The translations under genes and the position numbers were made by a program. 64,000 bases of DNA from Patescibacteria group bacterium (GTDB taxonomy: Bacteria > Patescibacteriota > Saccharimonadia > CAILAD01 > JADZBC01): assembly GCA_052034495.1 (NCBI GenBank), contig JBPOIL010000010.1:14457-78456 (forward strand). Reading direction: 5' to 3'. Positions 17,492-64,000 of this stretch are shown here, one piece after another (the first letter of the stretch is position 1; each line of letters begins with the position of its first letter). The notes below the pieces were generated by a model. It ran no database searches. It saw nothing but the letters and a program-made list of their open reading frames with translations, and was not told where the DNA came from.

Positions 17492-17519
17492 ATTATACCA
17501 AACTTACCCAATGTGTCAA
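17492..17519 (-). promoter_or_regulatory. Consensus sigma-70 promoter (TTGACA-N16-TATAAT) reading toward RHH paralog A
   Basis: The minus strand reads TTGACAcattgggtaagtttggTATAAT, immediately downstream of repeat copy C. A ~500-nt high-GC leader follows. Confidence 0.6.
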
Positions 17520-17527
17520 TAGGGCGA

Positions 17528-17593
17528 GAATAAAAAGGACCCCGCTGGCCGGCTCGCCTCCCGGAGGATTTGAGCCAGCCAGCCGAGTCGCCA
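17528..17593 (-). repeat. Copy C of the ~65-bp palindromic repeat
   Basis: GAGAATAAAAAGGACCCC-GCTGGCCGGCTC-gcctcccggaggattt-GAGCCaGCCAGC-CGAGTCGCCA. Lies immediately 3' of ORF 17620..17868. Confidence 0.75.
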
Positions 17594-17619
17594 ACGGCTG
17601 CAAGCACCGCAAGAGAACG

Positions 17620-17868
17620 CTACAGCAAGACATGAACGCGTTCAGTCGAACCATCTGCCCTACGGATAAATAGCTCACCGCCCTTGTCTTTCACCTCCTC
17701 CAGGTACCATAGGTACATCTTCATCGCATCATTGGTCAAGGCGGCAAGAGATCTTTCCATATCTGTCGACCGCTCTCTCAGCCTGGTGGCCGTAGCCGGA
17801 TTGAGACTCAGTGACATCTTCACAGCCGGCACCGCATCAGTCCTGGGCATTGCGCACCTACCTTGCAT
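17620..17868 (-). CDS. Ribbon-helix-helix-like small protein, paralog B
   Basis: ...KMSLSLNPATATRLRERSTDMERSLAALTNDAMKMYLWYLEE...FIRRADGSTERVHVLL shows the beta-strand/helix/helix pattern of CopG/Arc-type folds. The C-terminal RADG(S)TER motif is shared with paralog A. An upstream promoter TTGAAA-N17-TATAGT lies at ~17880-17915. Confidence 0.5.
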   Translation of the reverse strand: MQGRCAMPRTDAVPAVKMSLSLNPATATRLRERSTDMERSLAALTNDAMKMYLWYLEEVKDKGGELFIRRADGSTERVHVLL

Positions 17869-17923
17869 TAGGGATTACGGATGATTACGATACTATAACA
17901 CTATAGTTAATACTTTTCAATAG

Positions 17924-27460: not shown

Positions 27461-28993
27461 TTATTTCCAGGACCAAGTACTTTCTAAGGTAGAAACAGCT
27501 GCTTTTGTGAACTCATCACTGCTCGTCATGTTGATTTCAAAAGACGTAATCTTCTCGCCATCAAGCTTGTATTTGCTGTCTTTGAGCACTACCACAATCA
27601 TTGTCTTGTTTTGCGGTACTTCGGTAGTGCCAGCGTTAAACACAACCTCCGTTGCATCAAAGCCACCTAGCGTAATTTGTCGCTCGGAAACAGTATTGGC
27701 TGCCGTTATCTTGTTGGCCTCTTTGGAGGCGACCACTGCCTTTTCTAGATCTTCGTACGCGGTAATAGAAGGCAGCACTGCGATAGTACTTACCCCCTGA
27801 GCACCGAAGGTGGCGTCTAACTTACACGACGTGTCGTCCGTAGGAACTGTATTGTCTGTGGGTAGTCCAAACTCATAACATTCCTTAACGATAGCCGTGT
27901 AGCCCTCTGGGACGGTAATCGTTGGCTCGGTAGATACGCTCTGGCTCTGCTCTTGGTCTCCTGAAAGCGAATCAGCTGGAACCTCGGTAGTTGGCTTACG
28001 GCCTAGAATGAGGGCCAACACAATAATTCCAAAGATCAGGACAGCGGCGCCGATACCGACTGCCATAAATATACCTTTACCGCCTTTTGCTTTACCGCTA
28101 GAGCTGCTCGCGGCGGCCATGAGCGCAGGGTCCGAGTATGGGTCGACTCCAGCTGCTGGATTAGCCGCAGGGTCATCTAGCATGGATTGTAATGTTGGGT
28201 CAGTCCCTGCCATAGCAGGATCAACTGGAGCGGCTACGCCTGGAGCCATACCTGCACCGGCCGCTGGGTCAACAAACTGCTGTCCAAACGCCGGTTCGGG
28301 TGCGGCTGGCGCAGGCTCGGGCATAGTGGGGGCAACAGGCATAGGTCCGGGTCCCATTGGGACCACCATAGGCGCTGGCTCCGGCATTGGGGCTGGTGCT
28401 GCCACTGGAGCAGCCGCTATTGGTTGTTCTGGCAGGAAGGGTGCTGGTGGCGCTGTCGCAGCGTCCATCTCGAGTGGGTTGGGCGGTAATGGCTCAGGAG
28501 CTGAGGGGTAAGAACTAGCTGGAGCGCCCACACCTACATCCTGCGAAGGGTCGTAGGCTTGAGTCGGCATTGGAGCAGGTGCTATTGGCGCTGGCTCCGG
28601 AGCAATTGGCTGGGGCGCAACCGAGACAGTATCTATTGGCGCGGCGACTGCGGGCATAACGGGCGCGACAGGTGCAGCGGCAACCGCAGGGTCAGTAAAG
28701 CCGGCCATAGGGTTTGGCTCTGGGTCTGCTATATGCGCCTCTACTGCGGCTGCAGCAGGATCTGCTGGCGCCACAACCGGCATTGGAGCTGCCACGGGGG
28801 CTGGAGCTACTGAGTCCACCATAGGCGCGCTATTGAGCTGAGCATTTACAGCATCCTGGAGCGGCGAACCAGTACTGGGTGCAGCAGCAGCACCTGGGGC
28901 GTAGGTAGGGGGAATTTGCGCGTTTAAATCAGCCCCAGGTTGCGAGGCTGCGCTCTGATCATTCAGTGGTGATTGTGGATCTTGTGGCGTCAT
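27461..28993 (-). CDS. Pro/Ala-rich membrane-anchored protein with a globular C-terminal extracellular domain
   Basis: ~280 aa of PA-rich low complexity, then one transmembrane helix (IFMAVGIGAAVLIFGIIVLALIL), then a ~180-aa domain. Confidence 0.6.
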   Translation of the reverse strand: MTPQDPQSPLNDQSAASQPGADLNAQIPPTYAPGAAAAPSTGSPLQDAVNAQLNSAPMVDSVAPAPVAAPMPVVAPADPAAAAVEAHIADPEPNPMAGFTDPAVAAAPVAPVMPAVAAPIDTVSVAPQPIAPEPAPIAPAPMPTQAYDPSQDVGVGAPASSYPSAPEPLPPNPLEMDAATAPPAPFLPEQPIAAAPVAAPAPMPEPAPMVVPMGPGPMPVAPTMPEPAPAAPEPAFGQQFVDPAAGAGMAPGVAAPVDPAMAGTDPTLQSMLDDPAANPAAGVDPYSDPALMAAASSSSGKAKGGKGIFMAVGIGAAVLIFGIIVLALILGRKPTTEVPADSLSGDQEQSQSVSTEPTITVPEGYTAIVKECYEFGLPTDNTVPTDDTSCKLDATFGAQGVSTIAVLPSITAYEDLEKAVVASKEANKITAANTVSERQITLGGFDATEVVFNAGTTEVPQNKTMIVVVLKDSKYKLDGEKITSFEINMTSSDEFTKAAVSTLESTWSWK

Positions 28994-29052
28994 ACAAATA
29001 CTATTTGCCTACAAGTATATCAACTTTACCCGATAAGCACAAAATACTTATG

Positions 29053-29976
29053 CTAGTGCGATTCCAGATAGCGCATGTAGCGCGACCACTCTCCTCCGAG
29101 TAGACTAACTGCCAGCTCAATGCCGAGTTGAACGGTCTTCCCCTCTTCGTCCCGCGCGGGATTCACCTCTACCACATCTACCGCAACAATATTTAGTTCA
29201 GAAAGTTTCCTGCAAAGGTAACCGACTTCTCGATAGCTCAGCCCGCCCTGGTTAATGATTCCCGTTCCTGGAGCTTCGCTCACGTCGACCGAGTCGATAT
29301 CGAGCGCTACGTGCAATGGCCTCTCCCCCACAAGCTCCCGAGCGGTAGTAAACGCATGCGCCACCCCCTGCTCAGTAATCTCATCCATAGTAATGTAGCG
29401 AATTCCTTTGGCCTGCATATAGCGCACCTCGTGATCATCCATGTCTTTGGCCCCAAGGATAATCACCTCGTCATAATTGTAGTGAGGTCCACCGAACTCA
29501 GCGTGCAAGGCATCGCCGAGCGCAGTTGAAAGCGGCATTCCATGCAAATTGCCGGTTAGGGTCTCTTCTGGATTAGAGCAATCGGGGTGTGCGTCGATAT
29601 ACACGATGCAAGCGCCAGCATGCCTTTGCTTTGTGGCCAGCATACTACCCATGCCAATGGAGTGATCTCCGCCCAGGGTCAAAGCGATGTCGCCCCTGTT
29701 CGTACTCTCCGTAATCTGGCCCAGTAACTCTCTATTGAAATTAACTACCGCATCAAAGTTGCGCAGCTTGCCTTTGTCGATCGGCTCCCCATCCGCTTCG
29801 ATCGACTCACGAACCTCTGCTTTAATTCCGTTATGTGCGAGGGCCGTCAATAAGCCCTCCCGGAGCATTGCGTCGGGCCCCTGATCCACGCCATTACTAA
29901 AACTACCGAGTGCGAGTGGGGCCTGGAATATCTTTAACATCTCCACTATTATACGCCGCGACCCTATAAGCGCCAA
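29053..29976 (-). CDS. Arginase/agmatinase/formiminoglutamase-family ureohydrolase
   Basis: Manganese-binding motifs GGDHSIGMGS and DAHPD (VYIDAHPDCS), plus SLDIDxxDP-like (ALDIDSVDV). Confidence 0.85.
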   Translation of the reverse strand: MALIGSRRIIVEMLKIFQAPLALGSFSNGVDQGPDAMLREGLLTALAHNGIKAEVRESIEADGEPIDKGKLRNFDAVVNFNRELLGQITESTNRGDIALTLGGDHSIGMGSMLATKQRHAGACIVYIDAHPDCSNPEETLTGNLHGMPLSTALGDALHAEFGGPHYNYDEVIILGAKDMDDHEVRYMQAKGIRYITMDEITEQGVAHAFTTARELVGERPLHVALDIDSVDVSEAPGTGIINQGGLSYREVGYLCRKLSELNIVAVDVVEVNPARDEEGKTVQLGIELAVSLLGGEWSRYMRYLESH

Positions 29977-29978
29977 TC

Positions 29979-31319
29979 ATGTATAATGGCCTTATGTCTA
30001 AAGCAATCAAGCAAATAAAAAACACCCTCCGTCCACTTATCCCCCGCGAAGCCCTGAATCGCTACCACTACCCCGAAGCTCGCCTAGCCCAGCTAAAGCA
30101 TAAAAACCCGTCTGAGAAGATGATTATCATTGGTGTGGTTGGCTCTAAGGGAAAAACCACAACCTCGAACATGATTTGGGCAGCACTTAGTGCCGATGGC
30201 AGCAAAGTTGGTCAAATTGGTACCGCCAACATCCGCATTGCCGGCCACGAGGAGCTGAATAAGCACCATATGACCATGCCGAATGCATTTATATTGCAGG
30301 GCTACCTAAAGCGTATGTTGGCGGCGGGCTGCAAATACGTCGTCATGGAAGTCCCAAGCGAGGGCCAAACACAGTACCGCCATGTGGGCATTAACTTCGA
30401 TGTGCTCGTGTTTACCAACGTAACGCGCGAGATCATGGCCGCGCATCGTAACAGCATGGAGGTCCTACACCAACACAATAAGCGTGTTTTTGTACAGATG
30501 GCACGAGGCAAGCACAAAATTCTGGGTGGCAAACGCATTCCTAAAATCATCATCGCCAACAGCGACGCCCACGATGCACCAGCCTATTCTGGCTTCAAGG
30601 CAGACCAAAAAATTAGCTACAGCATAAAGTCCAATAGTGACTATAAAGCAATTGATGTAAAAGCATCGAACAAGGGCATTGATTTTAAGATCAACGGCCA
30701 CCCATACCACCTAGACATACTTGGCACCATTAACGTCATTAACGCAGCTGGAGCGATCGCCACAGCGTTCGCGCTCGGCAAAGACGCAGAAGCAACTAGC
30801 AAAGGGCTTACTACTCTCGGAGCAATCCCCGGCCGCATGGAAGTTATTGACGAAGGCCAGGACTTCACTGTAATCGTCGACTACGCTCACGAGCAAGTTA
30901 GTATGCAGGCACTCATGGACGGCGCAAACGCCATGAAGGCCAAGGGGGCCAAGGTCATTACCCTACTCGGTGCCGAGGGTGGAGGCAGGGATGTAGAAAA
31001 ACGCCCCGACATGGGTGCAATCGCCGCCAAGGGCTCGGACACCATTATAATCTGCAACGTCGATCCGTATAGCGATGATCCAATGCAGATCATTCATGAC
31101 ATTGCCAAGGGCGCAGAAGAAGCCGGCGCCAAGCTAGATAAGGATATGTTCTGCATCGAAGACCGTCGCAAAGCAATTGCCAAGGCACTCAAGTTAGCCA
31201 AGAAGAACGACATAGTGCTCATTACCGGCAAAGGCAGCGAGCAATCAATGGTTATTGGTGGCAAGAAGATTGATTGGGACGACCGCGATGTGGTCCGTGA
31301 AGAGCTTAAAAAGCTTTAG
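29979..31319 (+). CDS. Mur ligase family protein (MurE-like)
   Basis: GVVGSKGKTTTSNM P-loop, DYAHEQ, GAEGGGRDVEKR and ITGKGSEQ motifs typical of Mur ligases. Confidence 0.8.
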   Translation: MYNGLMSKAIKQIKNTLRPLIPREALNRYHYPEARLAQLKHKNPSEKMIIIGVVGSKGKTTTSNMIWAALSADGSKVGQIGTANIRIAGHEELNKHHMTMPNAFILQGYLKRMLAAGCKYVVMEVPSEGQTQYRHVGINFDVLVFTNVTREIMAAHRNSMEVLHQHNKRVFVQMARGKHKILGGKRIPKIIIANSDAHDAPAYSGFKADQKISYSIKSNSDYKAIDVKASNKGIDFKINGHPYHLDILGTINVINAAGAIATAFALGKDAEATSKGLTTLGAIPGRMEVIDEGQDFTVIVDYAHEQVSMQALMDGANAMKAKGAKVITLLGAEGGGRDVEKRPDMGAIAAKGSDTIIICNVDPYSDDPMQIIHDIAKGAEEAGAKLDKDMFCIEDRRKAIAKALKLAKKNDIVLITGKGSEQSMVIGGKKIDWDDRDVVREELKKL

Positions 31320-40149: not shown

Positions 40150-40578
40150 ATGATAGTAGCCAGGCCAATTACAGAGCTCAATGATGAGCTGACTCAAAGA
40201 ATCCAAGAACTTAAAGCGCAATTATCAAAAGGCCGTAGAGGCAGCCTGAAGCAGTATGATGCGGCCGTAAACAATACCAATACAATAATAATCGGTGCTT
40301 GGGACGGGGAAAAGCTAGCTGGTATCGGAGTACTAAACATTGTTCAGACCCTTGGTGGCTGCGCGGGCGACATAGACGACGTAGTGGTGGGCGAAGAGTA
40401 TCGAGGCCAAGGCGTAGGTCGGATTATAATGGATGCGATAATTACTACGGCGAAAAACAAAGGCGCCACAAAGCTTAGGCTAACGTCAGCCGCGCGACGC
40501 GTAGAGGCTAACGGTCTGTATAGATCACTGGGCTTCAAACTACGCGAAACAAATAGCTACGTTTACAACGTAAAGTAA
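40150..40578 (+). CDS. GNAT-family N-acetyltransferase
   Basis: Acetyl-CoA-binding motif RGQGVGRIIMDAI. Confidence 0.8.
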   Translation: MIVARPITELNDELTQRIQELKAQLSKGRRGSLKQYDAAVNNTNTIIIGAWDGEKLAGIGVLNIVQTLGGCAGDIDDVVVGEEYRGQGVGRIIMDAIITTAKNKGATKLRLTSAARRVEANGLYRSLGFKLRETNSYVYNVK

Positions 40579-40797
40579 GCTAAATAAAAGCAGCCTAGCA
40601 AAGCTAGACTGGATAAGTGCTGATAGTGCTTCGAGCTCGCGGGGAGGATCTCCCTCCCCGCCGCTCAAGTACTGCATGAACCGTGCTTCAGCTGATGCTG
40701 CTTTGCCGAAGCCACTCCTCCTGAGAGGATGCGTGCAACAGGGAGTACCCTACTGCAACGACGACTGCCGCGATCAACCCGATCGCCGCCCAGCGCT

Positions 40798-41229
40798 TCA
40801 TCCCAGCCTGCCGAAAGCTTCGAGCCCAGCGGTGTCGGCTGCGGCCGGGGTGGACCAACTCTTTGGCCTGGCCAGGCCACCCTGCTTTGCCGACCTGGCT
40901 GTACAGCGCTTGCCCTCCAGCCTCTTCTGGGCGGCACCCTTGGCGTCGCTGTAGATCTTGATGAGGAGGAAGTCGAAGAGGACCACCACCCCAGCAAGCA
41001 GCTTCGGGTAACGCCTGGCGAGACGCAACACCGGGCCGGCCGTGACGGCCAGAACACCAGAGAAGGCGCCGATGCCAACCCAGACGATCTTGCTGGGGTT
41101 GTCTTCGGTGTAGACCCTCCCGTGGGCAGCGGCCTCCCGCTTTGCCGACGCATCGCCGAACTTGGCGAAGAGCCAGAACAGGGTGGCCCCCACCAAGCCA
41201 CCCACTACCAATTGCTGAGACTTCCGCAT
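40798..41229 (-). CDS. Hypothetical membrane protein (three transmembrane helices) in a high-GC islet
   Basis: High-GC ORF. Overlapping alternative frames look non-protein. A GC hairpin gcggggagg-atct-ccctccccgc at 40640-40661 lies downstream. Confidence 0.4.
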   Translation of the reverse strand: MRKSQQLVVGGLVGATLFWLFAKFGDASAKREAAAHGRVYTEDNPSKIVWVGIGAFSGVLAVTAGPVLRLARRYPKLLAGVVVLFDFLLIKIYSDAKGAAQKRLEGKRCTARSAKQGGLARPKSWSTPAAADTAGLEAFGRLG

Positions 41230-41312
41230 GTTTCCCCCTAGGGTCTAGACGATTGCGGTAGCAACATTGTGCCCTAAATAGACCTGGTTTTCAAGCATAA
41301 GGATGCTTTAAC

Positions 41313-41888
41313 TTACTTGATAAACCCTTTTATCGCCTCATTGCCCGTTAGCAACTTCAGCTGATCCTTCATCCAGTACGAATACACGCCCGGATCATGT
41401 GGGTCTTTGGCTACCTCGTCTAGTAGCCACTGCCAAGTAACCCATTTGTAGTCTGCTACCTCGTCTGGGTTTGGCACAGGATCTTGATCCAACACACCAG
41501 CAAAGATCGGACAAAATTCGTATTCTACGATTCCATTGTACGGCGGCGTCTTATATATGTATTCACTAACCGCATTAACGAGGCCGTTCACGGTCGGGAG
41601 CCCGAGCTCATAATCAAGACGGCGGGCGATTGCAGCTTCAAAAGATTCCCCTGGCCCAGGATGCCCACAAACGCTATTCGTCCAAACATTCGGCCAAATC
41701 TTCTTACCCGCAGCGCGCTGTGTGATGAGTAGCTCTCCCTTAGAATTAAACACATAGCAGGAAAAAGCCCGGTGCAATTTAGTGAGCGCACCATGGCTAT
41801 CGATCTTGGGGCCCGTCTCACCCGTAGGCTTGCCAGTATCGTCTACGAATACTACTTGTTCCTGATTCAGCTGATCTATACTTACCAT
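41313..41888 (-). CDS. idi: Isopentenyl-diphosphate delta-isomerase, type 1 (Nudix)
   Basis: FSCYVFNSKGELLITQRAAGKKIWPNVWTNSVCGHP...E-rich Nudix-like motif matching type-1 IDI. Confidence 0.85.
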   Translation of the reverse strand: MVSIDQLNQEQVVFVDDTGKPTGETGPKIDSHGALTKLHRAFSCYVFNSKGELLITQRAAGKKIWPNVWTNSVCGHPGPGESFEAAIARRLDYELGLPTVNGLVNAVSEYIYKTPPYNGIVEYEFCPIFAGVLDQDPVPNPDEVADYKWVTWQWLLDEVAKDPHDPGVYSYWMKDQLKLLTGNEAIKGFIK

Positions 41889-41895
41889 ATACTAA

Positions 41896-42603
41896 TTATA
41901 CCTCACCCCGTAAGTATTGTTGCCGCAATGGCTCGTCGAAACGCTCAATTGCGTAACGTAACATGGTGCGCGGCATAACCCTATAATGTTTCTTTAAAAA
42001 CTCCTCTTCGACCTCCTGACCACAACTCTTCCCCACCTCCCTGAGCATCCAGCCGACGGCTTTATGAATCAAATCATGTGTGTCACCCACCAAGATCTCG
42101 GCAATAGCAAAGGTGTCTTTATTCTCTCCGAGGCTAATGAAATGTGCGGTAGCAATAATAGCAATCCTGCGTTCCCATAAGTTGTCTGAACGAGCTAGTT
42201 CGTATAGCACGGCGCGATCTTTGTCCGCCAGGTACGCACCAACAATATTTGAGGCCGAACTATCTACCAGGTCCCAGTTATTTACGCGCTTGGTGTGCGC
42301 CATATAAAAGTCGTATATCTCGCCTCTCGCCTGCTCATCCAACTTCTTGAACCTATAGACCAGTATCAGAAGGCCCGTTAATCGCTCTTCGTGCACCGGG
42401 CTCAGTAGTAACTTTTCTACTTCCCCAAAGCTTAGGTCGGCGTATTGCCTAGCTACCTTGCGCTGATTCGGCACGGTCACGCCAATAAATACATCGCCCT
42501 CGCCATACTGGCCAGGACCTGTTTTGAAGAACCACTCAGAATTCTTAGCACGCTCGGGCGATGCGACCTGCTGCAACGCCTTTACGACGTCAGCGGCCCT
42601 CAC
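41896..42603 (-). CDS. DNA alkylation repair protein (AlkD/AlkC-like HEAT-repeat glycosylase)
   Basis: 235 aa. N-terminal KALQQVASPERAKNSEWFFKTGPGQYGEGDVFIGV is characteristic of the AlkD family. Confidence 0.75.
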   Translation of the reverse strand: MRAADVVKALQQVASPERAKNSEWFFKTGPGQYGEGDVFIGVTVPNQRKVARQYADLSFGEVEKLLLSPVHEERLTGLLILVYRFKKLDEQARGEIYDFYMAHTKRVNNWDLVDSSASNIVGAYLADKDRAVLYELARSDNLWERRIAIIATAHFISLGENKDTFAIAEILVGDTHDLIHKAVGWMLREVGKSCGQEVEEEFLKKHYRVMPRTMLRYAIERFDEPLRQQYLRGEV

Positions 42604-42836
42604 TTGCCTGCCTTATGATTGGTCCTTCCCCAAGAAATATGCGCCCAGACGCGTTCGTGAAAGTAATATATGACGGTACTGATTACAGCTGCCCAGCCAG
42701 TTAGCTGAACGGCGCTATCCATACTGCCAGTGACGAAATATGTAACAATAAATAGCTCGAGCGAGATAATCACCCGATAGGTAAATGTTTTAGCCAGAGA
42801 TCGATAGCTATGTTCGTGATGTTTGGGTCTTTGCAT
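42600..42836 (-). CDS. DUF2061-like small membrane protein
   Basis: 78 aa with two transmembrane helices. FTYRVIISLELFIVTYFVTGS pattern. Confidence 0.55.
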   Translation of the reverse strand: MQRPKHHEHSYRSLAKTFTYRVIISLELFIVTYFVTGSMDSAVQLTGWAAVISTVIYYFHERVWAHISWGRTNHKAGK

Positions 42837-42874
42837 AAGACCATTATACTCGGCTTAGCGACGCGAGTAAGTAC

Positions 42875-43129
42875 TTAACGACGAGTTTTGCGCGAGTTTG
42901 ATGGAAAGAACTTCTTCACAAGGTCGGCCAACATTATAAGTGGGCTTGCTGTGTCCCGAACCGCCCCACTGACCTCCTGGAGGTTGTCTAGGATTTCTCC
43001 CATTTGTGCCGGTACTGTCTTCATATCCTTCATAAACCGAATAAGTAATGTTGTGGCAATAATTGCCAGCACCAAGAAGACTGCGAGAGTTATTGATAGG
43101 ATTACGACGAGTATTTGGAAAGCATTCAT
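42875..43129 (-). CDS. Small membrane protein (DUF948-like)
   Basis: N-terminal transmembrane helix, then a coiled region. Followed by the bidirectional terminator at 43188-43211. Confidence 0.5.
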   Translation of the reverse strand: MNAFQILVVILSITLAVFLVLAIIATTLLIRFMKDMKTVPAQMGEILDNLQEVSGAVRDTASPLIMLADLVKKFFPSNSRKTRR

Positions 43130-43238
43130 ATCTATATTCTATCAGATTATATGGCCTTTGTCAATGCTTAAGATCTGACGTAACTTTAAAAGGCGCCCGA
43201 GGGCGCCTTTTAACTAAGCCGTGTAGATTTACACTGAA

Positions 43239-43640
43239 CTATTCTACTACTTTGACCTCATCGCCGTGAACGGTAAGAGCAAAGATTACCAATACACTAA
43301 CTGCGATTGTGATAACCGACCAAATTGGGTAGATGTTGACTGATGCCAAGTTTGCAGCTGCGCTACCAAGTGCAATCAATACACCAACTACGCGAGCCCA
43401 AGCGGAACCCTTCATAACACCAAAGCCTGCTAAGAGAACAGTTAGGCCCAAGAGGAAGTAGGTCCAGCCCCATGTGCTAAAGTCGAGCAAGAGCAGCTTT
43501 GACTCTGTAGTAACGAGCCAATCGCTGTTGAAGAGGACTGTGAGTCCGGCGATCATTTGGAAAGTACCAAGCATGGTCATCATGAAGCCTGCGAAGAAAA
43601 TCCAGCCGACCCAGCCAGTAACGTTATTTTTAGTTGCCAT
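43239..43640 (-). CDS. Hypothetical integral membrane protein
   Basis: Four predicted transmembrane helices. Length 133 aa. Confidence 0.5.
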   Translation of the reverse strand: MATKNNVTGWVGWIFFAGFMMTMLGTFQMIAGLTVLFNSDWLVTTESKLLLLDFSTWGWTYFLLGLTVLLAGFGVMKGSAWARVVGVLIALGSAAANLASVNIYPIWSVITIAVSVLVIFALTVHGDEVKVVE

Positions 43641-44036
43641 GATAAAACTTCTTAATTACCCTTTAATTGTCCTCCTGCCCTTGGTATCTTGTCAATAGTA
43701 TGGTCTAGCTATGCTTCTGTCGTGGTGTTGTAACAATGTAGATAAGCGCCACGAAGGCCAATAGTACAAGAATAGTACAAACAATACTGAGTGGCGTTTG
43801 GTCCGGCCAGAACGCAAGGTATAGGGCGGACAGAGCAGCTGCGGCGCCATAAAGATACTGACGAGCGGCAACGTTGCAATTCCTTTTGGCATGCTGAGCG
43901 CCGGCACAGTGCTCTTGGCACGAAACCTAGGCCTGTTTGCATCTAACTCTTCCGCCACTGGAATCCTCTTGCTCCTTATCGGGCTTGGCATTTTGGTAAT
44001 TGCCGTATCCCCCAAGGGCAAACCACAAGACTAGAC

Positions 44037-44471
44037 TTATTCGCCGGCTTTTAGCTTTTGTTTGCGTTCGCGTAGCTTTTTCAAGTTCGTAACATTTGGT
44101 ATGGGTTGAGTCTTTATACTTAGGTCTGGCACTTCTTTAGAAAACCCAAGTCTTGCCATACCTATAAATGCCCCGATAGTGAGCCAGGTCGCGGAGTATG
44201 CAAAGCTCTTGCCGAATGCGCGCCCTAATCGCTCTGCAGTGGCGAGCGAGTAAACAAACCCAACGTACGGAACGAGGGCATAGAAAAACCAGTGTCGAGG
44301 TAGGCCTACAGATGCCATCAGCGCCATGAAATTATATCCAGGTACAAACGCCTGCCACCAAGGAGTCTGTAATTTACGTAGCACAGCAGCCAAGCAGATG
44401 CAGTACCAAAAGTAAGCCACGAGAATAATCGCTATCACAATCATGCCAAATTGGGCTATAGCTTCACTCAT
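44037..44471 (-). CDS. Hypothetical integral membrane protein
   Basis: Three to four predicted transmembrane helices. Length 144 aa. Confidence 0.5.
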   Translation of the reverse strand: MSEAIAQFGMIVIAIILVAYFWYCICLAAVLRKLQTPWWQAFVPGYNFMALMASVGLPRHWFFYALVPYVGFVYSLATAERLGRAFGKSFAYSATWLTIGAFIGMARLGFSKEVPDLSIKTQPIPNVTNLKKLRERKQKLKAGE

Positions 44472-44510
44472 GTCTATATCGTAGCACAGAGGCTCATTAT
44501 GAAGCGCAAG

Positions 44511-45281
44511 TTATGGGCGCAACGTACCAAAGAACACTTGCCAGGCGAGTGCTGATTTGGCAACTAGGCTAAGAATTATATACACGCGCTCACCATACAG
44601 GTAGTCCTTCCATTTTCCAACTTGCTTGTACTGCAGGAACATATTGATCGCAAAGATGTTAAAGAAGGCAAAGATCGAAACGTAAATCCAGTAAACAAAA
44701 GCGGGGATGTTGCCACTGCCGTAGGTGTTGCTCGCCCAGAATGAAGTAGCAACGATTATCCATGGAACTATGCCGGCAATACAACCAACGACGAAACTAA
44801 CCCACTTAGTCTTTTCTGTAGTCTGATTGTGAATCTCCATCACCAAGCCCATCAGATTCATGACCGCGACAAGCGCAAATATACCGATTAAAAGCGAGAG
44901 GTCGTATATGCCGACCAGGAGCGAAATAGCCACCATCATGGTGCTAGCAGATAACGAGTATTCGATCCAGCGAGCTCGGTTGATACCTTTGCCAAGGTCC
45001 TTGTTATAACGCTTATTGTAAACCGTAGCGATTATCAGGTGCGCCAATGATGACATTACCAGGAACGCAACCACGAGGTATGCTAGCGGGACATCAAAGA
45101 GGGTCTTTGTAGCAGACTCTAAGTTTTGAGTCTGCCGGTTGAAAGATAGGAAGCTCGTGGTAACAGGCAGTAAAAACTCTTTGCTCAAGAGCAAGATAGC
45201 CAAGGCCTGGACCGCGTGCAACGCAGCCATTTTAAAGTTAAATGATCTCAGCCCTGCTTTCGTAATCTTTTTTCGAGCCAC
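44511..45281 (-). CDS. Heliorhodopsin
   Basis: Seven transmembrane helices. Strong similarity to heliorhodopsin 48C12 in RWIEYSLSASTM, VGCIAGIVPW and YLYGERVYIILSLVAKSALAWQVFFGTL. The retinal Schiff-base Lys in LVAKSA is present. Confidence 0.85.
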   Translation of the reverse strand: MARKKITKAGLRSFNFKMAALHAVQALAILLLSKEFLLPVTTSFLSFNRQTQNLESATKTLFDVPLAYLVVAFLVMSSLAHLIIATVYNKRYNKDLGKGINRARWIEYSLSASTMMVAISLLVGIYDLSLLIGIFALVAVMNLMGLVMEIHNQTTEKTKWVSFVVGCIAGIVPWIIVATSFWASNTYGSGNIPAFVYWIYVSIFAFFNIFAINMFLQYKQVGKWKDYLYGERVYIILSLVAKSALAWQVFFGTLRP

Positions 45282-45776
45282 TTCGTAATCTCCTTATTTA
45301 GGATGATTATAGCATAACGCCTATGCTAGCGGTTGCACGTAGTGTTCTATACCATACTGTTAGGCCGGCCATGAAAGGAGTCGAGTTGCCGAATAGGATA
45401 GCCAAGCGGCACCTGGTGCCAACTCACGACAGTCCGCGAACGTGGTGTCAAATGGGATCAGGCCACGTTCACACAACTGAAAGCCCATCTGGGGCAACAT
45501 GCAACGGGTGTCTCAAGGCGTATTGGAGGACGGTAGTACCAGATCCAGCTGTCATTACAGACCTGCTGCTAGCACTCCACCCCAACAACTCAGACCCCAT
45601 GACCTCGTGCCAGCGTGTGCTCTACCAAGTACTAACTGGTCACAAGCTCCCAAATGCCTGAACTCACATCGACGTGGGTTCAGGCATTTCCCTTTATCTA
45701 CTTTTTTGTTTCAGTTTATCGCAGTGTTTCCTTGTAAATTACCTATTTAACAGATTGTATTTAGTGCCAATAAGCA

Positions 45777-45805
45777 TTGACAAAATACTAAATTTGTGCT
45801 AATAT
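45777..45805 (+). promoter_or_regulatory. Consensus sigma-70 promoter TTGACA-N17-TAATAT for the high-GC operon
   Basis: TTGACA at 45777-45782, a 17-nt spacer, TAATAT at 45800-45805. AAGGAG lies 7 nt before the TTG start at 45873. Confidence 0.65.
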
Positions 45806-45872
45806 TCTTGGGTTACCTGGCTTCGAACCAGGAGCACATCACATCCAAGAAGCATACCAAGGAGAAGGTGCC

Positions 45873-46502
45873 TTGCAGGCAACCGACCAGTCCACATCCA
45901 CCTCGCGAGCACTCGTGCTCGCCGACAAGATCCTGCCGGCCATCATGGACCCGGCGCAGTTCCCGCAGATCGCGGGCGGCAAGTCCCAGACCGACAAGAT
46001 CAACCTCGCGCGCGACGTGGCCGACATCGTCGTTCGTCGCAACGCCGACGAGAGCCAGGACGAGGGCTTCGCCCTCACCCTGGTGACCACCATGGACGAG
46101 TTCCCCAAGAAGGCTTCCAAGGCTGCCGTCAGCCTGCTGCTCGACACGGGGATGAGCTCGATGGAGGTGCACGGGGCGATGAAGTTCGCCACGGAGCTGG
46201 ACGTCAGCCTGGACTTCGCCATCACGTGGATGAAGTACTGGGACGTCACCCTGTCCGACGAGGACGAGGTGTCAGCCTGTGCGGACTCCACCATCGAGCT
46301 GCTCAACGCGCAGCCGCGCGGCGTCGGGATCAACGCCCAGGGCAAGCTCCAGGGCGGGACCCGTCCGCGGAACCCGCACTCGGTCCCCGACCCGGGGCAG
46401 AGCCAGGACCGCGAGCAGATCCTGCTCACGGCCCGCCAGCTCGGCGAAGACCTCAACAAGAGGACCCTCGACGAGCTGGTCGACCACTTCGGTGGCTCCT
46501 GA
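45873..46502 (+). CDS. Hypothetical protein (high GC), first gene of a two-gene operon
   Basis: TTG start with a good ribosome-binding site. 209 aa, no recognizable domain. Its stop overlaps the next start (TGATG). Confidence 0.5.
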   Translation: MQATDQSTSTSRALVLADKILPAIMDPAQFPQIAGGKSQTDKINLARDVADIVVRRNADESQDEGFALTLVTTMDEFPKKASKAAVSLLLDTGMSSMEVHGAMKFATELDVSLDFAITWMKYWDVTLSDEDEVSACADSTIELLNAQPRGVGINAQGKLQGGTRPRNPHSVPDPGQSQDREQILLTARQLGEDLNKRTLDELVDHFGGS

Positions 46503-47431
46503 TGGCTCGCCTACAGAACCCCTTCTTGACCCTCGGGCTCACCCCCGCAGTGGTCAAGAAGGCCAAGTTCGAAGGCGCCATCGCCATCGCCAAGGTCATG
46601 TACCTGCAGAACAGTCGCCTTCACCACCCCGACACGGGCGGTGACAGGCGGCTGTTCGAGGCCGTGGCCGAGGCGTGGGAGCTACTCAACGGCGAGATGG
46701 CACAGGCCTTCTACGACGAGTACGTCTCGTCGCAGGCCGCCAAGCGGGCAGAGTCAGCAGCCCAGCTCCGCCTCGAACATGAGGCCGAGCTGAAGCAGTG
46801 GCGGGACGCCCTCGAGCGCACGCTCGAAGCGCCCCACCGTCAAGGAAACGTGTTCAACCCCACGGCAGGCCTTCGGGTCCTGCTGAGGGGCAAGCACTCC
46901 TTCCTGGAGCTGACGTTCGAGGGCGGCAAGCTGGCAGTACACACGCATGACCAGCTAGACCAAGAAGAGATGCCCTCCACTGTCAAGGGAGGCATGTCGG
47001 CCTACTACTACTCCAACGGGGAAACCCTGAAGAGTCATGGTGGAATCGACGGTGACGGCAAGGAGCTGGAAGCCGACGAGGGCCCAACCGACCTTCGGGA
47101 AGGATGGTACCAAATCGGACCAGTCACGGACGAAGGGACCAATCTCTACTCCCCGCTGGAGCCTTCGGGCAGAAAGCAGGAGAAGGACGTCTCGCCGTTC
47201 GTGCTGATCAGGGGCCACGCCACACGGGTCGCAGCCGACATCGGTCGGCAGCGTAGGCTCTCGGCAGGCGAGGACGATGCGTCCATCGCCGGCATCGAGG
47301 TCTCAAGTCTCGTGAGCAACCCTCAGCTCCTCAGCTTCGAGTGGAAGGAGGGCGCAGCCCTACTGGCCATCACACCGGGCCAAAGGATCGACATCCTCGG
47401 CACGGTGGTTGGCATCTACGCGCCGACCTGA
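46502..47431 (+). CDS. J-domain (DnaJ-like, HPD motif) protein with a ~240-aa C-terminal domain of unknown function
   Basis: MARLQNPFLTLGLTPAVVKKAKFEGAIAIAKVMYLQNSRLHHPDTGGDRRLFEAVAEAWELL has helix II, the HPD loop and helix III spacing of a J domain. The table ORF starting at 46226 overlaps the upstream gene and is an over-extension. Confidence 0.6.
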   Translation: MARLQNPFLTLGLTPAVVKKAKFEGAIAIAKVMYLQNSRLHHPDTGGDRRLFEAVAEAWELLNGEMAQAFYDEYVSSQAAKRAESAAQLRLEHEAELKQWRDALERTLEAPHRQGNVFNPTAGLRVLLRGKHSFLELTFEGGKLAVHTHDQLDQEEMPSTVKGGMSAYYYSNGETLKSHGGIDGDGKELEADEGPTDLREGWYQIGPVTDEGTNLYSPLEPSGRKQEKDVSPFVLIRGHATRVAADIGRQRRLSAGEDDASIAGIEVSSLVSNPQLLSFEWKEGAALLAITPGQRIDILGTVVGIYAPT

Positions 47432-51868: not shown

Positions 51869-53462
51869 CTCGCTACTGGCATTACCAGCAATGAGATGAA
51901 CACAACGCTCAACCGAATTTCAACTCCTGTTTCGCCATAACTTGGCTCATCGGTGCAGATCACTATCTGCAGACAGGGTCCCTCCAAGGAGCACGTCCTG
52001 CTCCCTGTAGGGATTTACGCATTGCCCGATCGGGCTTGAAGGCCACTTCGCGCTGGCCTGCTCTCTTTTTGTGGTCATGAGCTAGACCGTTGCGGTGCCT
52101 AGAAGGCTTCTTTTTCTCGCCAACTATACTTCTGTTGTCAGGCCGTCGCTACGGCCCCGAAGCTCCTACCGGCGGCGGCGTGGGTTCGGCGGACCGAACG
52201 CCTCGTCGTAGCTGATGGGGTCCCCCTTGAGGTCTTCCGGATCCTCATCCGTCTCCCAGCGCCCAAACAGGACATTGCGAGGATCGAACGATGCACCTTC
52301 ATGCTCTTCTGAACTACGTGGCATAACCGCCCCTTGCTACGGAGTTGCGATTCAACTCCCCGACGGGAGGCACCCGCCTCTTACCTCCGGCTGGGGAGTT
52401 GAATTGTTAAAGTCTGTAAAAGTTCTCTGATAGTTTCGTCATTTCTGACTCATCAGCTCGGACATACATCCGAGGACTATCTACTCACGAACCCTTAACG
52501 GGCTCGCGAGCGACCCTGGGGAGCCTCTGCACGACAGCGCAAAGTCTACAACCCAGGTAAGGTTTGCCTAGCTTCACTCGACCGAGTGACCTAGAGCGGC
52601 TTACCTTCTGCCGCGGCGTGATTGCGTTCGCCTTAGAGGGCATACCGGTTTTCAGGCCGTGTATGTCCGGGGTAGCGAAACGCACTTTTAGCTAGTGGAG
52701 TTAACCCCGGATCACTTGTTGGTCTCCCACCACTCTCGTGGTCGCGCGTCCCGCTTGGGACTACACGTCGGGGTTTGTACCCGCAGGCTGATCCAATCTC
52801 CTCTCCTGTGCATACCCCTTTCTCCGCGCCGCGGAGGGTTTGGACGGGCCGCCCTCATCGCTCGATCGCGACATGCACTTTACTAGCATCGAACTGTGGC
52901 TGTGATTGGCGGGGATGCTTCCGCGCAATCACTTTGCTAAGGTCTATCCAGGTAAGCTGCGGGTAGCAACCTTACTGGACTCCTTGGCTTCTAGGTACTA
53001 CGTAGCTCTGGGAGGATCTGGTACCTCAACCGGAGCCGGGGTTGTCATGGCCGTGCTTTCGCTCGGCGCCCCTATTCCCTAAGGGCACGTGCCATACGCG
53101 CCCACTTTCGTCCACAATCCTCGCTCGCATAGGCTGGCAAGGAAACTCCCGAAGGAGCGCTGTCCGTGAACATTTGTTGGCCTCAACAGCCAGGGTGCTG
53201 GCGTCCTGTCATGCTTGGTGTAAATATTTACAGAACCCAGCGCCTTGACTGTCGATAACCTTTGACGTTTATTTTTTGAAGTTCTACGCGCTCTTCAGCT
53301 GCACTGTCGAGAATATTACACGGTTGTTTATTTTTTGTCAATACTTTTTGTCACTATATTGCAAACATTATGCAATATTATCTTGATCTAACCTGTAAAA
53401 TACTGTTGAACTTTCCAAACACTTAAGCATAAGCCTGTTGGGTACTTGTAGGTTTTTGTAAC

Positions 53463-53485
53463 AAAAAACGCCCTTAAGGGCGCTT
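53463..53485 (-). terminator. Intrinsic terminator on the minus strand
   Basis: The minus strand reads aagcgccctt-aagggcgttttttg. Confidence 0.55.
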
Positions 53486-53887
53486 AGAGTGAGAATGATA
53501 TCTGTGATGCCAGGGTGGCCGACCGATCCCTCGCGGGAAAGGCCGGCCACCCACGTGGCGCAGAGCTGTGTCGTTCGGCGCTGGACGCACCGGCGAGAAA
53601 GCTCTGTGAGCACGGAGGCTCGTAGTTCCGAGCAGTGGTTGCTCGATTGCGGCCTGGGCGCTGGGCCCTGGCTACATCCGGTGATGAGGACGATCACTCG
53701 CCCTCCTCCTGGTTGTTGTTGGCGGCTAGATGCCGCCACCGATGCGAGCGGTCATGGTAGACCTCCCTGTGTATGACGGGCTTGCGCCATCTCGAGACGA
53801 TCCCGAGATACGGCAGCTATGCACGCATCATGTGCACTGCCGTCAGTCAGTGTTGATAATAGCAGATTTAGCCATAATTGTCAAGCT

Positions 53888-54649
53888 TTATTGACGTTTT
53901 TGGTTATTCCAGGCGAGCTCGAACAGCTGTCTTAATGCGGCTGCGATCTCTTTGCTTTCAATAATTACGCTAATGGAGTCATGTTCCCCGTAGGTGCCGA
54001 TAGCAACGCCTTCTTCGTAGAGAGCAATGTCGGCCGAAATCGGTGTATCCAGCTTAGACGTCTCCCTCATCAAGCTCTTATCCGTGTTCAGGTCCCCGAT
54101 AGTTGAGTAGTAGAACATCTTACTTGATATCTTTTTCTTTAGGCGCTTTGTCGGGTTGGCCTTCAACGCATCCGGAAAGAGTTTAACGACTTCGTTATAG
54201 TCAGAGAGGGCGTACACGGAAGACCCAGTTCTAGCCTTCCTGCGGAGGTAGCCATCAATGGCGACTGCACCTTCCTTACCGCGGAAAAACCTTACCTCTG
54301 GAGCGTCAGAAGAGCCGCCGTGCTCCTGCTGCTTTAGACTTGGCATTAAGCTCTTCAATTCACTCTTTTTTGCCTCAATACTTGTCTTCTGGCCTTCCAG
54401 ATATCGTTCTAGAGCCTCGGGGGGTTCGGCAACGAAAACAGTTTTTTTACCCTCTGTAGACTGGCTAACCATGCCCATCCCGGCAAGCTCATCGAGAATT
54501 ACATAGGTGGTAGCACGGTTTACTTCGGCTTGCTGAGCTATCTTTTGCGCGCTTGCTGAACCTAGAAAAAGCGCAGCCACGTACACACGGGCTTGCTTGT
54601 CGGTCAATCCAACAGATTGTAGTTTGGTTGCGAGTTCGATTATTTGCAT
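53888..54649 (-). CDS. TrmB-family transcriptional regulator, paralog 1
   Basis: N-terminal TrmB HTH LGLTDKQARVYVAALFLGSASAQKIAQQAEVNRATTYVILDEL, plus a C-terminal effector-like domain. Confidence 0.75.
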   Translation of the reverse strand: MQIIELATKLQSVGLTDKQARVYVAALFLGSASAQKIAQQAEVNRATTYVILDELAGMGMVSQSTEGKKTVFVAEPPEALERYLEGQKTSIEAKKSELKSLMPSLKQQEHGGSSDAPEVRFFRGKEGAVAIDGYLRRKARTGSSVYALSDYNEVVKLFPDALKANPTKRLKKKISSKMFYYSTIGDLNTDKSLMRETSKLDTPISADIALYEEGVAIGTYGEHDSISVIIESKEIAAALRQLFELAWNNQKRQ

Positions 54650-56285: not shown

Positions 56286-56375
<90 letters not shown>

Positions 56376-61906: not shown

Positions 61907-62378
61907 ATATAGTGTACAAAATGACGGGCTTGAGCGTCAAGACCCCTGCCACTTGCATCTCCGGCCTTGGAGCTCCTGCCTTCCGCGACATTCGAATATC
62001 CTGGACGTGATTCGGAGTACTCAGAACAGAAAGACCGAGGATTGTTTGAGCCTGTTTCAGGCGAGTCCCGCAGGACGCTTCTGTTTGAGTACGGAGAATC
62101 ACCACCAAGAGATGAGCCCCATGTCGCAAATACTTTTGACTACTTTTGGTATCTTCAAAAGTAGTAATGAAGAATGAGCTATCTTGTTTTAAACTGGATG
62201 CCCTTTTGAAAGACCCAAAAGGGCGAAAAGGTCTTCCGACCACGGGTTCGCATCTAGGTGCGTTCGTTCACTCATGAAACTAGAATGTCGTGCCCACTGC
62301 GAGTTTGAGGACTCTCGTGGTTCACTTGTTCTGGTTCATGAGCTCCTCACTGCCTGATGCTCCAGGGTCGGGGAGCAT

Positions 62379-62434
62379 GCAACTTTCGCTCTTTTGAGCT
62401 CATCAGAATAACCTACAGTTATTGAGTTGCCACC
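62379..62434 (-). ncRNA. Type-III hammerhead ribozyme (candidate)
   Basis: Minus strand: GGUGGCAAC-UC|AAUAAC-UGUAG-GUUAUU-CUGAUGA-GCUC-AAAA-GAGC-GAAA-GUUGC. Stem I is 6 bp with a 5-nt loop. Stem II is 4 bp with an AAAA loop. Stem III is 6 bp including A15.1-U16.1. Cleavage triplet is CUC. Confidence 0.6.
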
Positions 62435-62520
62435 CCAGGCCGAAGCCCGGGATGAGGAGTTTATATGGCTTACTCCTGTGCCTGCGTAGTTCCCGAAGGA
62501 GCTACTTGTTGTGTTGCGGC

Positions 62521-64000
62521 CTAGTTGCCGCTAGCCGATGCCGTTCGTCGACTGCGCTCTTCAGCGCTGAGCTGCGACAGCTCGTCGATGGTCGCATCGA
62601 TCTGAGCCTGCAGCTCGGCATCCGTGAGGGCCGAGAGCTCCTCGTCGGACTCACCGGGCGTGGGGGTCTCCCCCGGCACAGCCAGTTCGTCCTCGGTGCC
62701 ATCGATCAGCACGCGACCAATCTCGCCACCGTTGAGCTCCACCGCCTGATCGAGCTGACCAGGTCGGATGCGGAGCAGGTAACGGGGCTGGCCGGACTGC
62801 GTGGCGAACACCACCCAGTTGCCATCCTCGCCCGGGATGAACTCCTCCAATCGACCCTTTTGCCCCTCGTTGAGGAACGCGGGGTCGAGCTTGCGGAGGA
62901 TGTCCCTGGCGCGCCGTTCCAGATCTTGCTCGGTGAGGGCGTTGCCGTCCTCGTCTCCGTGCACCTGGACTCGAATCGTGTTCAGCTGGCCGTACGTGAC
63001 GGTGTCGCTGGGAACGAAGCTGACGGCCTGGATGACCTGGCTGCGGGTGCCCTTGGCGGTGAGCGGCGTCACGAAGTACATCCGCCCATCCTCCTGGCTC
63101 CGCAGGTTGTAGTCGGCAGGGTTCTCGGCATTCGCATCGATGTTTACCGGCTCGAAGCCGAAGGCATCGTTGCTGTACCACTTGCGCCCAGCAGCCCAGT
63201 TGACCATCTCGCGCTGCTTGGTAGCGACGCTGATGGGGTACACCGGGCCAGGAATCTCACCCGACTTCACCGAACGCTTGTACTCGATGGCCGGCGAGCC
63301 GGACTCCGAGCCACGCACCACGATGACGCCCGCAGGCACCTCAATGCTGCGTGAACCGTTCCACCGGTCGGTCTTGACCGGGATCACGATCACGGGGTTG
63401 TCATGGGTGTCGCAGTAGCCATAGACGTCGCTGAGACCCCAGTACACGTTGGCGCTCACCTGCTCCCGGATACGATCCGAGAGGCTGTTGGCGTACTCGC
63501 CCGTGATGGCCGCGTCGAGGCGGTTCTTGCCCTCGAAGCGACACTGGTGGACCTTCTCGGCGTCACCATTCCACTCGACGATGCTGTCGATGTGGATGCG
63601 CTTGCCTTCGCCGTCGCGGATGGCCGTCCACTTGCCCTTGCCTTCTCGATCTGAGATGTAGGCGTAGGTGTCGTCCAAGATGTCAGCCTTGGATGATCCA
63701 GTGGCGCGCTCGCTCATGATCCGTTGGGCGCCAGCCAGCGAGGCAGGGCGCTCTTCGAAACCACTTGCGAGGTACTCCGTGGGCTTGCCGGCCACGATCT
63801 TGGCCGGACCGACGTCGTGTCCACCCTCGAGCAACCGAGCCAGGATGCGCGGAGGCGCGTCCTTGTCAGCGTACTCGATCGAGACCGAACGCACAAACGG
63901 CGCGGCCTCGAGCTTGGAATCTGTTCCTGTGGGGAAACTCGCGGGCATAGTCATCAGGATGAAGCACACGCAAGCGACCACGGCTGTCGCCGTGATCAGC
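62521..64000 (-). CDS. Secreted or membrane-anchored hypothetical protein (high GC), probably 5'-truncated by the window edge
   Basis: Long high-GC ORF with a hydrophobic N-terminus (TATAVVACVCFILMTMPASFP), an acidic C-terminus and no recognizable domain. The opposite-strand ORF 62422..63354 is a compositional artefact. Confidence 0.5.
   Translation of the reverse strand, partial: LITATAVVACVCFILMTMPASFPTGTDSKLEAAPFVRSVSIEYADKDAPPRILARLLEGGHDVGPAKIVAGKPTEYLASGFEERPASLAGAQRIMSERATGSSKADILDDTYAYISDREGKGKWTAIRDGEGKRIHIDSIVEWNGDAEKVHQCRFEGKNRLDAAITGEYANSLSDRIREQVSANVYWGLSDVYGYCDTHDNPVIVIPVKTDRWNGSRSIEVPAGVIVVRGSESGSPAIEYKRSVKSGEIPGPVYPISVATKQREMVNWAAGRKWYSNDAFGFEPVNIDANAENPADYNLRSQEDGRMYFVTPLTAKGTRSQVIQAVSFVPSDTVTYGQLNTIRVQVHGDEDGNALTEQDLERRARDILRKLDPAFLNEGQKGRLEEFIPGEDGNWVVFATQSGQPRYLLRIRPGQLDQAVELNGGEIGRVLIDGTEDELAVPGETPTPGESDEELSALTDAELQAQIDATIDELSQLSAEERSRRTASASGN

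Follow-up and report, generated by a model that had tools for sequence, protein, structure and literature searches.

Heliorhodopsins (HeRs) of bacteria lack ion pumping, form long-lived photo-intermediates, and have been found to regulate glutamine synthetase, photolyase, and the ABC exporter OmrDE by contact (Cho et al., 2024; PMC11109279). A viral HeR reportedly transports protons (cited in PMC11109279), and ten classes of genes have been described as recurrent neighbours of HeR: GS, NAD synthetase, photolyase, MerR, TerC, ABC transporter, SDR, alpha/beta hydrolase, DUF2177, and DUF2238 (Cho et al., 2024; PMC11109279). In Saccharimonadia, 80 HeRs have been catalogued, and SLVAK is the commonest motif of HeRs from CPR bacteria (Chiriac et al., 2022; PMC9166423). 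The same study reported that the non-Gracilibacteria CPR classes make only C10-C20 isoprenoids and have no C5 pathway. Rhodopsin-bearing Saccharibacteria lack blh, and their actinobacterial hosts have been suggested as the source of their retinal; proteins of the TaHeR type load external retinal within seconds (PMC9296517).

The HeR gene described here lies in a 64-kb stretch of DNA from a Patescibacteria group bacterium, the whole of which was analyzed and is referred to below as the window. Its product shares host group and SLVAK motif with the Saccharimonadia HeRs surveyed by Chiriac et al. (2022; PMC9166423). That survey contains neither the neighbours of this locus nor any linkage of HeR to idi, the gene for isopentenyl-diphosphate isomerase (IDI). 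As in the HeR-glutamine synthetase, HeR-photolyase, and HeR-OmrDE pairs (PMC11109279), the likely mode of action is that of a non-pumping HeR acting by contact. Unlike the HeRs of those pairs, however, the window HeR is flanked, according to Pfam assignments, by no gene of the ten classes listed by Cho et al. (2024), nor by the glutaredoxin/GSHPx or two-component genes described elsewhere (Bulzu et al., 2021).

The heliorhodopsin gene and its expression signals

The original prediction that the 256-aa protein (Table 1) is a heliorhodopsin with a conserved Schiff-base lysine was borne out by profile searches and by alignment to solved structures. The protein covered the whole of Pfam profile PF18761 (positions 1-242 of 242; E 9e-99; 330 bits versus a cut-off of 26.7) and scored 338 bits, versus a cut-off of 100, with the NCBIfam equivalog NF038020 'heliorhodopsin HeR'. 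Its best match of known structure was TaHeR of a Thermoplasmatales archaeon (PDB 6is6, 7clj), with an E-value of 2e-78 and 52% identity over 248 columns to 6is6, while 48C12 (6su3) was more distant (E about 1e-54). The retinal-binding SxxxK motif of TM7 was present as SLVAK, and its lysine, K242, was in register with K238 of TaHeR and K241 of 48C12. In addition, E107 aligned with the counter-ion glutamate in TM3 (48C12 E107), and H22 and H81 aligned with H23 and H80 of 48C12, so that the hallmark positions of 48C12 and the HeR family (H23, H80, E107, and K241) were all matched. Loss of the TM7 lysine, which would have spoken against the prediction, was not observed, and the counter-ion was likewise in place.

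Similarity to TaHeR extended to protein length, the SLVAK lysine, the counter-ion glutamate, both histidines, and seven helices. The two proteins differ in their origin, TaHeR being archaeal and the window HeR coming from a CPR bacterium, and in a 5-residue insertion in the extracellular loop between TM5 and TM6 of the latter. Seven hydrophobic segments were predicted in the window HeR, with 18 Lys and Arg residues on the side of the N-terminus versus 3 on the other side. This distribution fits a cytoplasmic N-terminus and hence the predicted inverted topology. Judged by these matches, the gene encodes, beyond reasonable doubt, a full-length, intact, and canonical heliorhodopsin, which has all sequence features for binding of retinal via a protonated Schiff base. 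It is an ordinary HeR, of a kind that standard annotation would name.

Scanning a single genome for each species yielded 78 HeR loci, mostly from Candidatus Saccharibacteria and other Patescibacteria. The same region was found in a Saccharibacteria MAG (L001) and in a 429-kb JGI contig (L079), whose proteins were 94-100% identical to those of the window and whose HeRs showed 94-96% identity. The window therefore comes from a Saccharibacterium, a tiny episymbiont. Genes near-identical to the window HeR are thus already present in public MAGs.

Sequences upstream of the GTG start indicated that HeR has its own putative promoter-like site and ribosome-binding site. The extended -10 element was missed by the consensus promoter scan, for lack of a good -35 element. 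All promoter-like sites in Table 1 are consensus matches only. A search of the window against Rfam returned a single tRNA and no match near HeR.

Table 1. Features at and around the heliorhodopsin locus, in window coordinates and listed from the divergent upstream gene to the far end of the minus-strand run.
Feature	Position	Strand	Description and evidence
Small Cys-containing protein gene	45371..45689	(+)	About 96 aa; divergent from HeR; 45-60% conserved in L001, L079, L080, L083
HeR extended -10 element	45314-45306	(-)	TG-c-TATAAT; read directly from sequence
HeR Shine-Dalgarno sequence	45295-45290	(-)	AAGGAG; 8 nt before GTG
Heliorhodopsin (HeR) gene	44511..45281	(-)	256 aa; GTG start; 7 TM; H22, H81, E107, S238-LVA-K242
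DUF5684 small membrane protein	44037..44471	(-)	144 aa; PF18936 E 1.2e-12; 39 nt after HeR
Deletion scar	43708..44034	both	blastn, tblastn, phmmer
Remnant of opposite-strand LiaF-TM gene	43891-44034	(+)	phmmer
C-terminal 69 codons of a 385-aa membrane protein	43708-43914	(-)	tblastn, 80%
Promoter-like site before DUF7144	43695-43666	(-)	Consensus scan
DUF7144 membrane protein	43239..43640	(-)	133 aa; 4 TM (predicted count); PF23636 E 3e-34
Promoter-like site just upstream of orf84	43136..43164	(-)	TTGACA-17-TAGAAT with TG; consensus scan
orf84, single-pass membrane protein	42875..43129	(-)	84 aa; no family; Pfam, TM prediction
DUF2061 small membrane protein	42600..42836	(-)	78 aa; PF09834 E 1.4e-14; stop overlaps AlkD start by 4 nt
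AlkD-like HEAT-repeat protein, DNA alkylation repair family	41896..42603	(-)	235 aa; PF08713 E 1e-63, full length
idi, type-1 isopentenyl-diphosphate isomerase	41313..41888	(-)	191 aa; 7 nt after AlkD
Hypervariable 3-TM protein downstream of idi	40798..41229	(-)	143 aa; TM prediction
Terminator-like hairpin after the 143-aa gene	40611-40591	(-)	Sequence scan

Neighbouring genes and the minus-strand run

HeR had been described in the original prediction as the last of seven consecutive minus-strand genes between positions 40798 and 45281. The run itself was found, but it contains eight coding ORFs rather than seven, together with a non-gene scar at 43692-44021. The description of its contents stood: five of the neighbours are small membrane proteins (DUF5684, DUF7144, DUF2061, orf84, and the 143-aa 3-TM protein), the AlkD-like enzyme was assigned by its Pfam match, and idi encodes a true type-1 IDI. 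The idi product exceeded the cut-offs of NF002995 (206 bits, cut-off 127) and TIGR02150 (128 bits, cut-off 105.8) in NCBIfam, matched the IDI structures of E. coli/Salmonella (PDB 3hyq, 1hzt) at an E-value of 1e-37, and retained the catalytic motifs TNSVCGHP and E-x-E in the alignment to 3hyq.

For the 143-aa protein, weak homologues were detected at the same position in the related loci L081 and L002, and its DNA was non-homologous to that of L079. An alternative frame of 178 aa at 40665-41201 was dropped in favour of this membrane protein with its weak positional homologues. The Cys-containing protein encoded divergently from HeR had no match in Pfam or NCBIfam. Its gene ends in a perfect 16-bp hairpin followed by a T-run at 45652-45689, which resembles a plus-strand terminator.

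Comparison by blastn with L079 revealed that 2,963 bp (L079 positions 11410-14372) are missing from the window, with the junction at 43864/43871. A 109-aa ORF spanning 43692-44021 was rejected as a gene on the basis of tblastn and blastn searches against relatives, which identified it as the deletion scar. In most of the closest relatives whose sequence continues downstream (L001, L079, L081, L084, and L002), an opposite-strand LiaF-TM gene comes after the gene that adjoins HeR. Beyond it lie DUF308 and one or two larger membrane proteins (L079/L001, L081, L084, L002). The ancestral layout thus included an opposite-strand gene at this point, and the uninterrupted minus-strand run in the window arose through a recent 2,963-bp deletion, in which this LiaF-TM gene was lost.

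Relatives whose HeR is at least 76% identical to that of the window formed one genus-level clade, comprising the window, L001, L079, L080, L081/82, L083, L084/85, and L002, with identities down to 80% (L081), 77% (L084), and 76% (L002). Only within this clade were window neighbours syntenic with HeR, so that synteny with HeR does occur in some relatives. The packed unit orf84-(DUF2061)-AlkD-idi recurred in all clade members with contigs long enough to include it, and orf84 homologues were present in L001, L079, L080, L081, L084, and L002. The flanking housekeeping genes were, however, equally syntenic, with PmbA-TldD-FMN reductase-HxlR on one side and RarA on the other. A GNAT gene beside RarA was kept in all clade members except L084, and the interior was reshuffled between these conserved flanks. 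Because the housekeeping flanks are just as syntenic, inheritance explains the conservation of the neighbours, and synteny within the clade is uninformative about function. On this comparison, HeR lies at the margin of a rapidly changing set of accessory genes that is specific to the genus and is bounded by conserved housekeeping genes.

Beyond the clade, the HeR loci of further relatives showed quite different gene contexts. When each window neighbour was searched by tblastn and phmmer against 79-88 HeR loci, only idi recurred outside the close clade; more than 70 loci with HeR identities of at most 74% lacked DUF5684, DUF7144, DUF2061, orf84, and AlkD at distances of up to 10 kb from HeR. 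Unbiased clustering of six ORFs on each side of HeR in 76 loci did not yield a dominant neighbour family, the most frequent neighbours being ABC ATPases, PD-(D/E)XK, GT2, DUF308, HAD, PAP2, and MsrA. Small membrane proteins occupied the position directly after HeR in 16 of the 76 loci, versus 234 of 1356 ORFs in the background, and were thus not enriched.

Candidate partners and the isoprenoid link

The run of membrane-protein genes had originally been taken as a co-transcribed unit whose members could be interaction or signalling partners of HeR. In such a model, DUF5684, DUF2061, DUF7144, or orf84 would serve as transducer or partner, by analogy with the sensory rhodopsin II-HtrII operon, in which the rhodopsin is co-transcribed with a membrane partner. 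Some features of the clade are consistent with it: in the seven members with sequence past HeR, a same-strand gene for a small membrane protein comes directly next (gap -20 to 64 nt), and DUF2061 and orf84 are retained somewhere in the region in every member with enough sequence. The adjacent family nevertheless switches within the clade, from DUF5684 (window, L001, L079, L080, L084) to DUF2061 (L081, L002). Neither these two families nor DUF7144 or orf84 recurred next to a rhodopsin across divergent lineages or figure among the published recurrent HeR neighbours, and Pfam searches found neither HAMP nor MCP-signal domains in any neighbour, unlike in the HtrII system, nor was a conserved partner gene present. 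The opposite-strand gene inferred for the ancestral layout and the inheritance of the whole region, together with the lack of enrichment at the class level, further argue against this model. A single transcription unit is contradicted by the opposite-strand LiaF-TM gene of relatives and by internal promoter-like sites found in consensus scans. The strongest of these sites in the region (11 of 12 matches) precedes orf84, and orf84-DUF2061-AlkD-idi has a promoter-like site of its own and would form a unit separate from HeR. Co-transcription with a set of membrane partners is therefore very unlikely, and this part of the original prediction was not upheld. DUF5684 is the only gene that is plausibly bicistronic with HeR, and DUF5684 or DUF2061 may be a lineage-specific HeR partner within the clade. 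Overall, gene context does not identify a partner of HeR in this organism.

As the only window neighbour to recur near HeR outside the clade, idi requires separate consideration. In proteorhodopsin photosystem clusters (crtE, crtI, crtB, crtY, blh, idi), idi likewise lies close to a rhodopsin gene. In contrast to such clusters, neither the window nor any related locus examined carried crt or blh genes. Within the clade of the window, idi lies 3.3-6.3 kb downstream of HeR. In three loci with HeRs of 70-73% identity (L003, L004, L088), the genes run cupin-idi-p166-HeR and overlap or are closely spaced, and in L020 the pair p166-idi lies about 8-8.7 kb downstream of HeR. On L101, a metagenome contig of 39% GC whose HeR belongs to another clade of the HeR tree, the gene 43 nt upstream of HeR encodes an IDI::polyprenyl synthase fusion. 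The HeR-linked idi genes fell on three separate branches of the idi tree.

The protein p166, absent from the window, is a soluble protein of 166 aa that has not been assigned to a family; its close relatives number at least 8000. Its gene adjoins HeR in three different gene orders, represented by L003/L004/L088, L065, and L174, and was also found without HeR. AlphaFold predicted its structure with confidence (pLDDT 90), and the model had no fold match in the PDB.

These arrangements raise the question whether HeR is tied to isoprenoid metabolism via IDI, either through light control of the use of IPP/DMAPP or through an unrecognized route for supply or handling of the chromophore. The variety of arrangements, the three idi branches, the separate HeR clade of L101, and the place of idi in proteorhodopsin photosystem clusters all point in this direction, and heliorhodopsin and isopentenyl were not mentioned together in the literature searched. 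In the window, however, idi is five genes away from HeR, with at least one strong promoter-like site in between, idi is missing within 10 kb in more than 70 HeR loci, and carotenoid genes were absent from all HeR-idi loci. A reciprocal idi-centred scan of metagenome contigs found HeR in only 1 of 80 loci, a set that held no close relative of the window genome (best idi identity 58%). A rough chance estimate for the association (p about 0.01-0.02) ignores shared ancestry. Moreover, idi, AlkD, DUF1697, cupins, and Msr have the look of accessory genes clustering in shared variable regions. Passive co-location is a real alternative, because idi and AlkD also pair beside a serine recombinase in a patch of accessory genes in L099. 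On balance, a link via IDI is doubtful. The broader idea that HeR of Patescibacteria is functionally coupled to isoprenoid metabolism, which draws on the several idi arrangements, the IDI-polyprenyl synthase fusion, and the flanking p166, is quite unlikely; the lineages concerned reportedly have no C5 isoprenoid synthesis and, in the case of Saccharibacteria, no retinal synthesis.

Function and retinal supply

By analogy with its family, in which the characterized homologues are at most 52% identical, the window HeR would be a slow-photocycle light sensor without ion pumping. Retinal binding, visible absorption, a slow photocycle, and absence of transport are likewise expected from these homologues. 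Like other bacterial HeRs, it may modulate another protein by direct contact, and it would at most be co-transcribed with the DUF5684 gene. What the original prediction says about undemonstrated ion transport by HeRs no longer holds for viral HeRs (PMC11109279). The proton transport reported for a viral HeR leaves room for a light-driven ion transporter resembling V2HeR3. Such a function is extremely improbable for the window HeR, whose closest characterized relatives are TaHeR and 48C12 and whose bacterial counterparts lack pumping and have long-lived photo-intermediates.

A light- and oxidative-stress neighbourhood, in which HeR would sense light and switch on protective and repair functions close by, namely HxlR/FMN reductase, Msr (in relatives), AlkD, and membrane proteins of the envelope-stress type such as LiaF-TM and DUF308, accords with published proposals that tie HeR to mitigation of oxidative stress, in CPR bacteria as well (PMC8612252; PMC9166423). 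MsrA or MsrB was found beside HeR or within about 6 kb of it in nine loci, including L081 and L084 of the clade, and HxlR and FMN reductase lie 2-3 kb upstream of HeR throughout the clade. Pfam assignments nevertheless place no Msr, glutaredoxin, peroxidase, or two-component gene next to HeR in the window, AlkD repairs alkylation damage rather than photodamage, and the pattern is an association only, within a highly variable set of neighbours. This explanation is hence unlikely.

As the original prediction had noted, genes for retinal synthesis are absent from the window. Among the ten ORFs of 40150-46502, Pfam detected no crt, blh, or polyprenyl-synthase domains (E<=0.01). In a window-wide Pfam scan, in which ORFs of at least 70 aa were run as concatenated pseudo-proteins, the other ORFs contained no phytoene synthase/desaturase, lycopene cyclase, blh, or polyprenyl synthase (E<=1e-5) and encoded only housekeeping proteins such as FtsK, RNase J, PNPase, Pol I, RpoD, DnaG, GroEL, and similar. 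A photosystem cluster of blh and crtE/B/I/Y near HeR was thus not found among the 70 window ORFs scanned. The organism of TaHeR similarly lacks a retinal pathway, and its HeR is quickly loaded with external retinal (PMC9296517). Because Saccharibacteria lack blh/crt genes and HeRs of the TaHeR type load external retinal quickly, all-trans retinal is proposed to be taken up from outside, probably from an actinobacterial host. Scavenging of retinal, already published for Saccharibacteria (PMC9296517), is plausible for this organism, of whose roughly 1-Mb genome the window covers about 6%.

Taken as a whole, the data are best explained by a canonical HeR of Saccharibacteria with its own expression signals, located at the edge of an accessory stretch beside a run created by deletion, and acting as a non-pumping sensor with imported retinal. 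We assign this reading a probability of roughly 0.7.

The occurrence of HeRs in Saccharimonadia, their SLVAK motif, and the missing retinal synthesis of Saccharibacteria have already been published, and the gene itself adds little to them. The useful outcome is the negative one on the membrane-protein operon. The run owes its continuity to a recent loss of DNA from a rapidly evolving accessory region, and the small membrane proteins of this neat-looking operon are therefore not to be read as a list of HeR partners. If, on the other hand, HeR were coupled to isoprenoid metabolism, a prenyl-diphosphate step would be gated by HeR or required for it; alternatively, the long-sought partners of HeRs in CPR bacteria would be p166 and IDI. 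The proximity of HeR to idi and to p166 offers a cheap and testable candidate for the target of HeR in these organisms.

Gene loss, replacement and apparent insertion around heliorhodopsin

Relative to its nearest relatives, loci L079 and L001, the window carried a clean 2,963-bp deletion downstream of the heliorhodopsin gene, with its junction at 43864/43871. This deletion removed a DUF308 gene and a gene for a membrane protein of 374 aa, together with the greater part of two others, a LiaF-TM gene and a gene encoding a 385-aa membrane protein. Remnants of the deleted genes persisted on both strands of the resulting scar (43708-44034). The slot 3' of the isopentenyl-diphosphate isomerase gene (idi) was hypervariable: positions 40666-41224, which hold a gene for a 143-aa protein with three transmembrane segments, were replaced at the DNA level and could not be aligned to L079, while the flanks were 94-97% identical, and the protein retained only weak similarity to its positional counterparts in L081 and L002, two loci of the same heliorhodopsin clade.

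Upstream, the divergent gene for a small Cys-containing protein was kept at 45-60% in L001, L079, L080, and L083, and ended in a 16-bp perfect hairpin with a T-run that resembles a plus-strand terminator. Two further genes, encoding proteins of 209 and 309 aa, lay in a stretch of 58.5% GC (approximately 50% for the window). Since this pair was confined to the window, L001, and L079, and was absent from L080 and L083, it looks like an insertion between the HxlR gene and the heliorhodopsin gene. GC content was also raised (0.55-0.60 versus approximately 0.50) at 16001-18000, 28001-30000, 52001-54000, and 62001-64000; these stretches coincided with ORFs without a Pfam match and may represent additional variable or foreign segments.

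Features in the window and in other heliorhodopsin loci
Feature	Location	Strand	Remark
Small Cys-containing protein gene, ~96 aa	window 45371-45689	divergent from heliorhodopsin	no family
Genes of 209 aa and 309 aa (latter with 'HPD' tripeptide)	window 45873-47431	+	no Pfam match
tRNA gene	window 56289-56375	-	sole Rfam match in window
p166	L003:7546-8046
p166	L004:9455-9955
p166	L088:7451-7957
p166	L065:372-833
p166	L174:10782-11288
p166	L020:16461-16961
MsrB	L081:6369-6767		near heliorhodopsin
MsrB	L084:7476-7874		near heliorhodopsin

idi and p166 in other loci

On a metagenome contig of 39% GC (L101:889-3193), a 537-aa fusion of isopentenyl-diphosphate isomerase and polyprenyl synthase was followed, after a 43-nt gap and on the same strand, by heliorhodopsin. 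At L099:6618-11907, idi was once more found near a gene for an AlkD-like protein, in the order idi-YdjM-AlkD. The same patch encodes DUF1697, a hydrolase, a CAAX protease and a serine recombinase, and has the look of an island of accessory genes.

A soluble, highly conserved 166-aa protein (p166), not encoded in the window, directly adjoined heliorhodopsin in three gene orders (idi-p166-heliorhodopsin, p166-heliorhodopsin, and heliorhodopsin-p166) and was also found at sites without heliorhodopsin. It had at least 8000 relatives, at approximately 60% identity, and no Pfam match; its predicted model was confident (pLDDT 90) and matched no PDB fold.

Methionine sulfoxide reductase genes

No methionine sulfoxide reductase gene adjoined heliorhodopsin in the window. 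Elsewhere, an MsrA gene lay next to heliorhodopsin or at most a few kb from it in L016, L022, L035, L041, L063, L069, and L173. Recurrence of methionine sulfoxide reductase genes, including MsrB, near heliorhodopsin across several Saccharibacteria lineages is in line with published oxidative-stress proposals.
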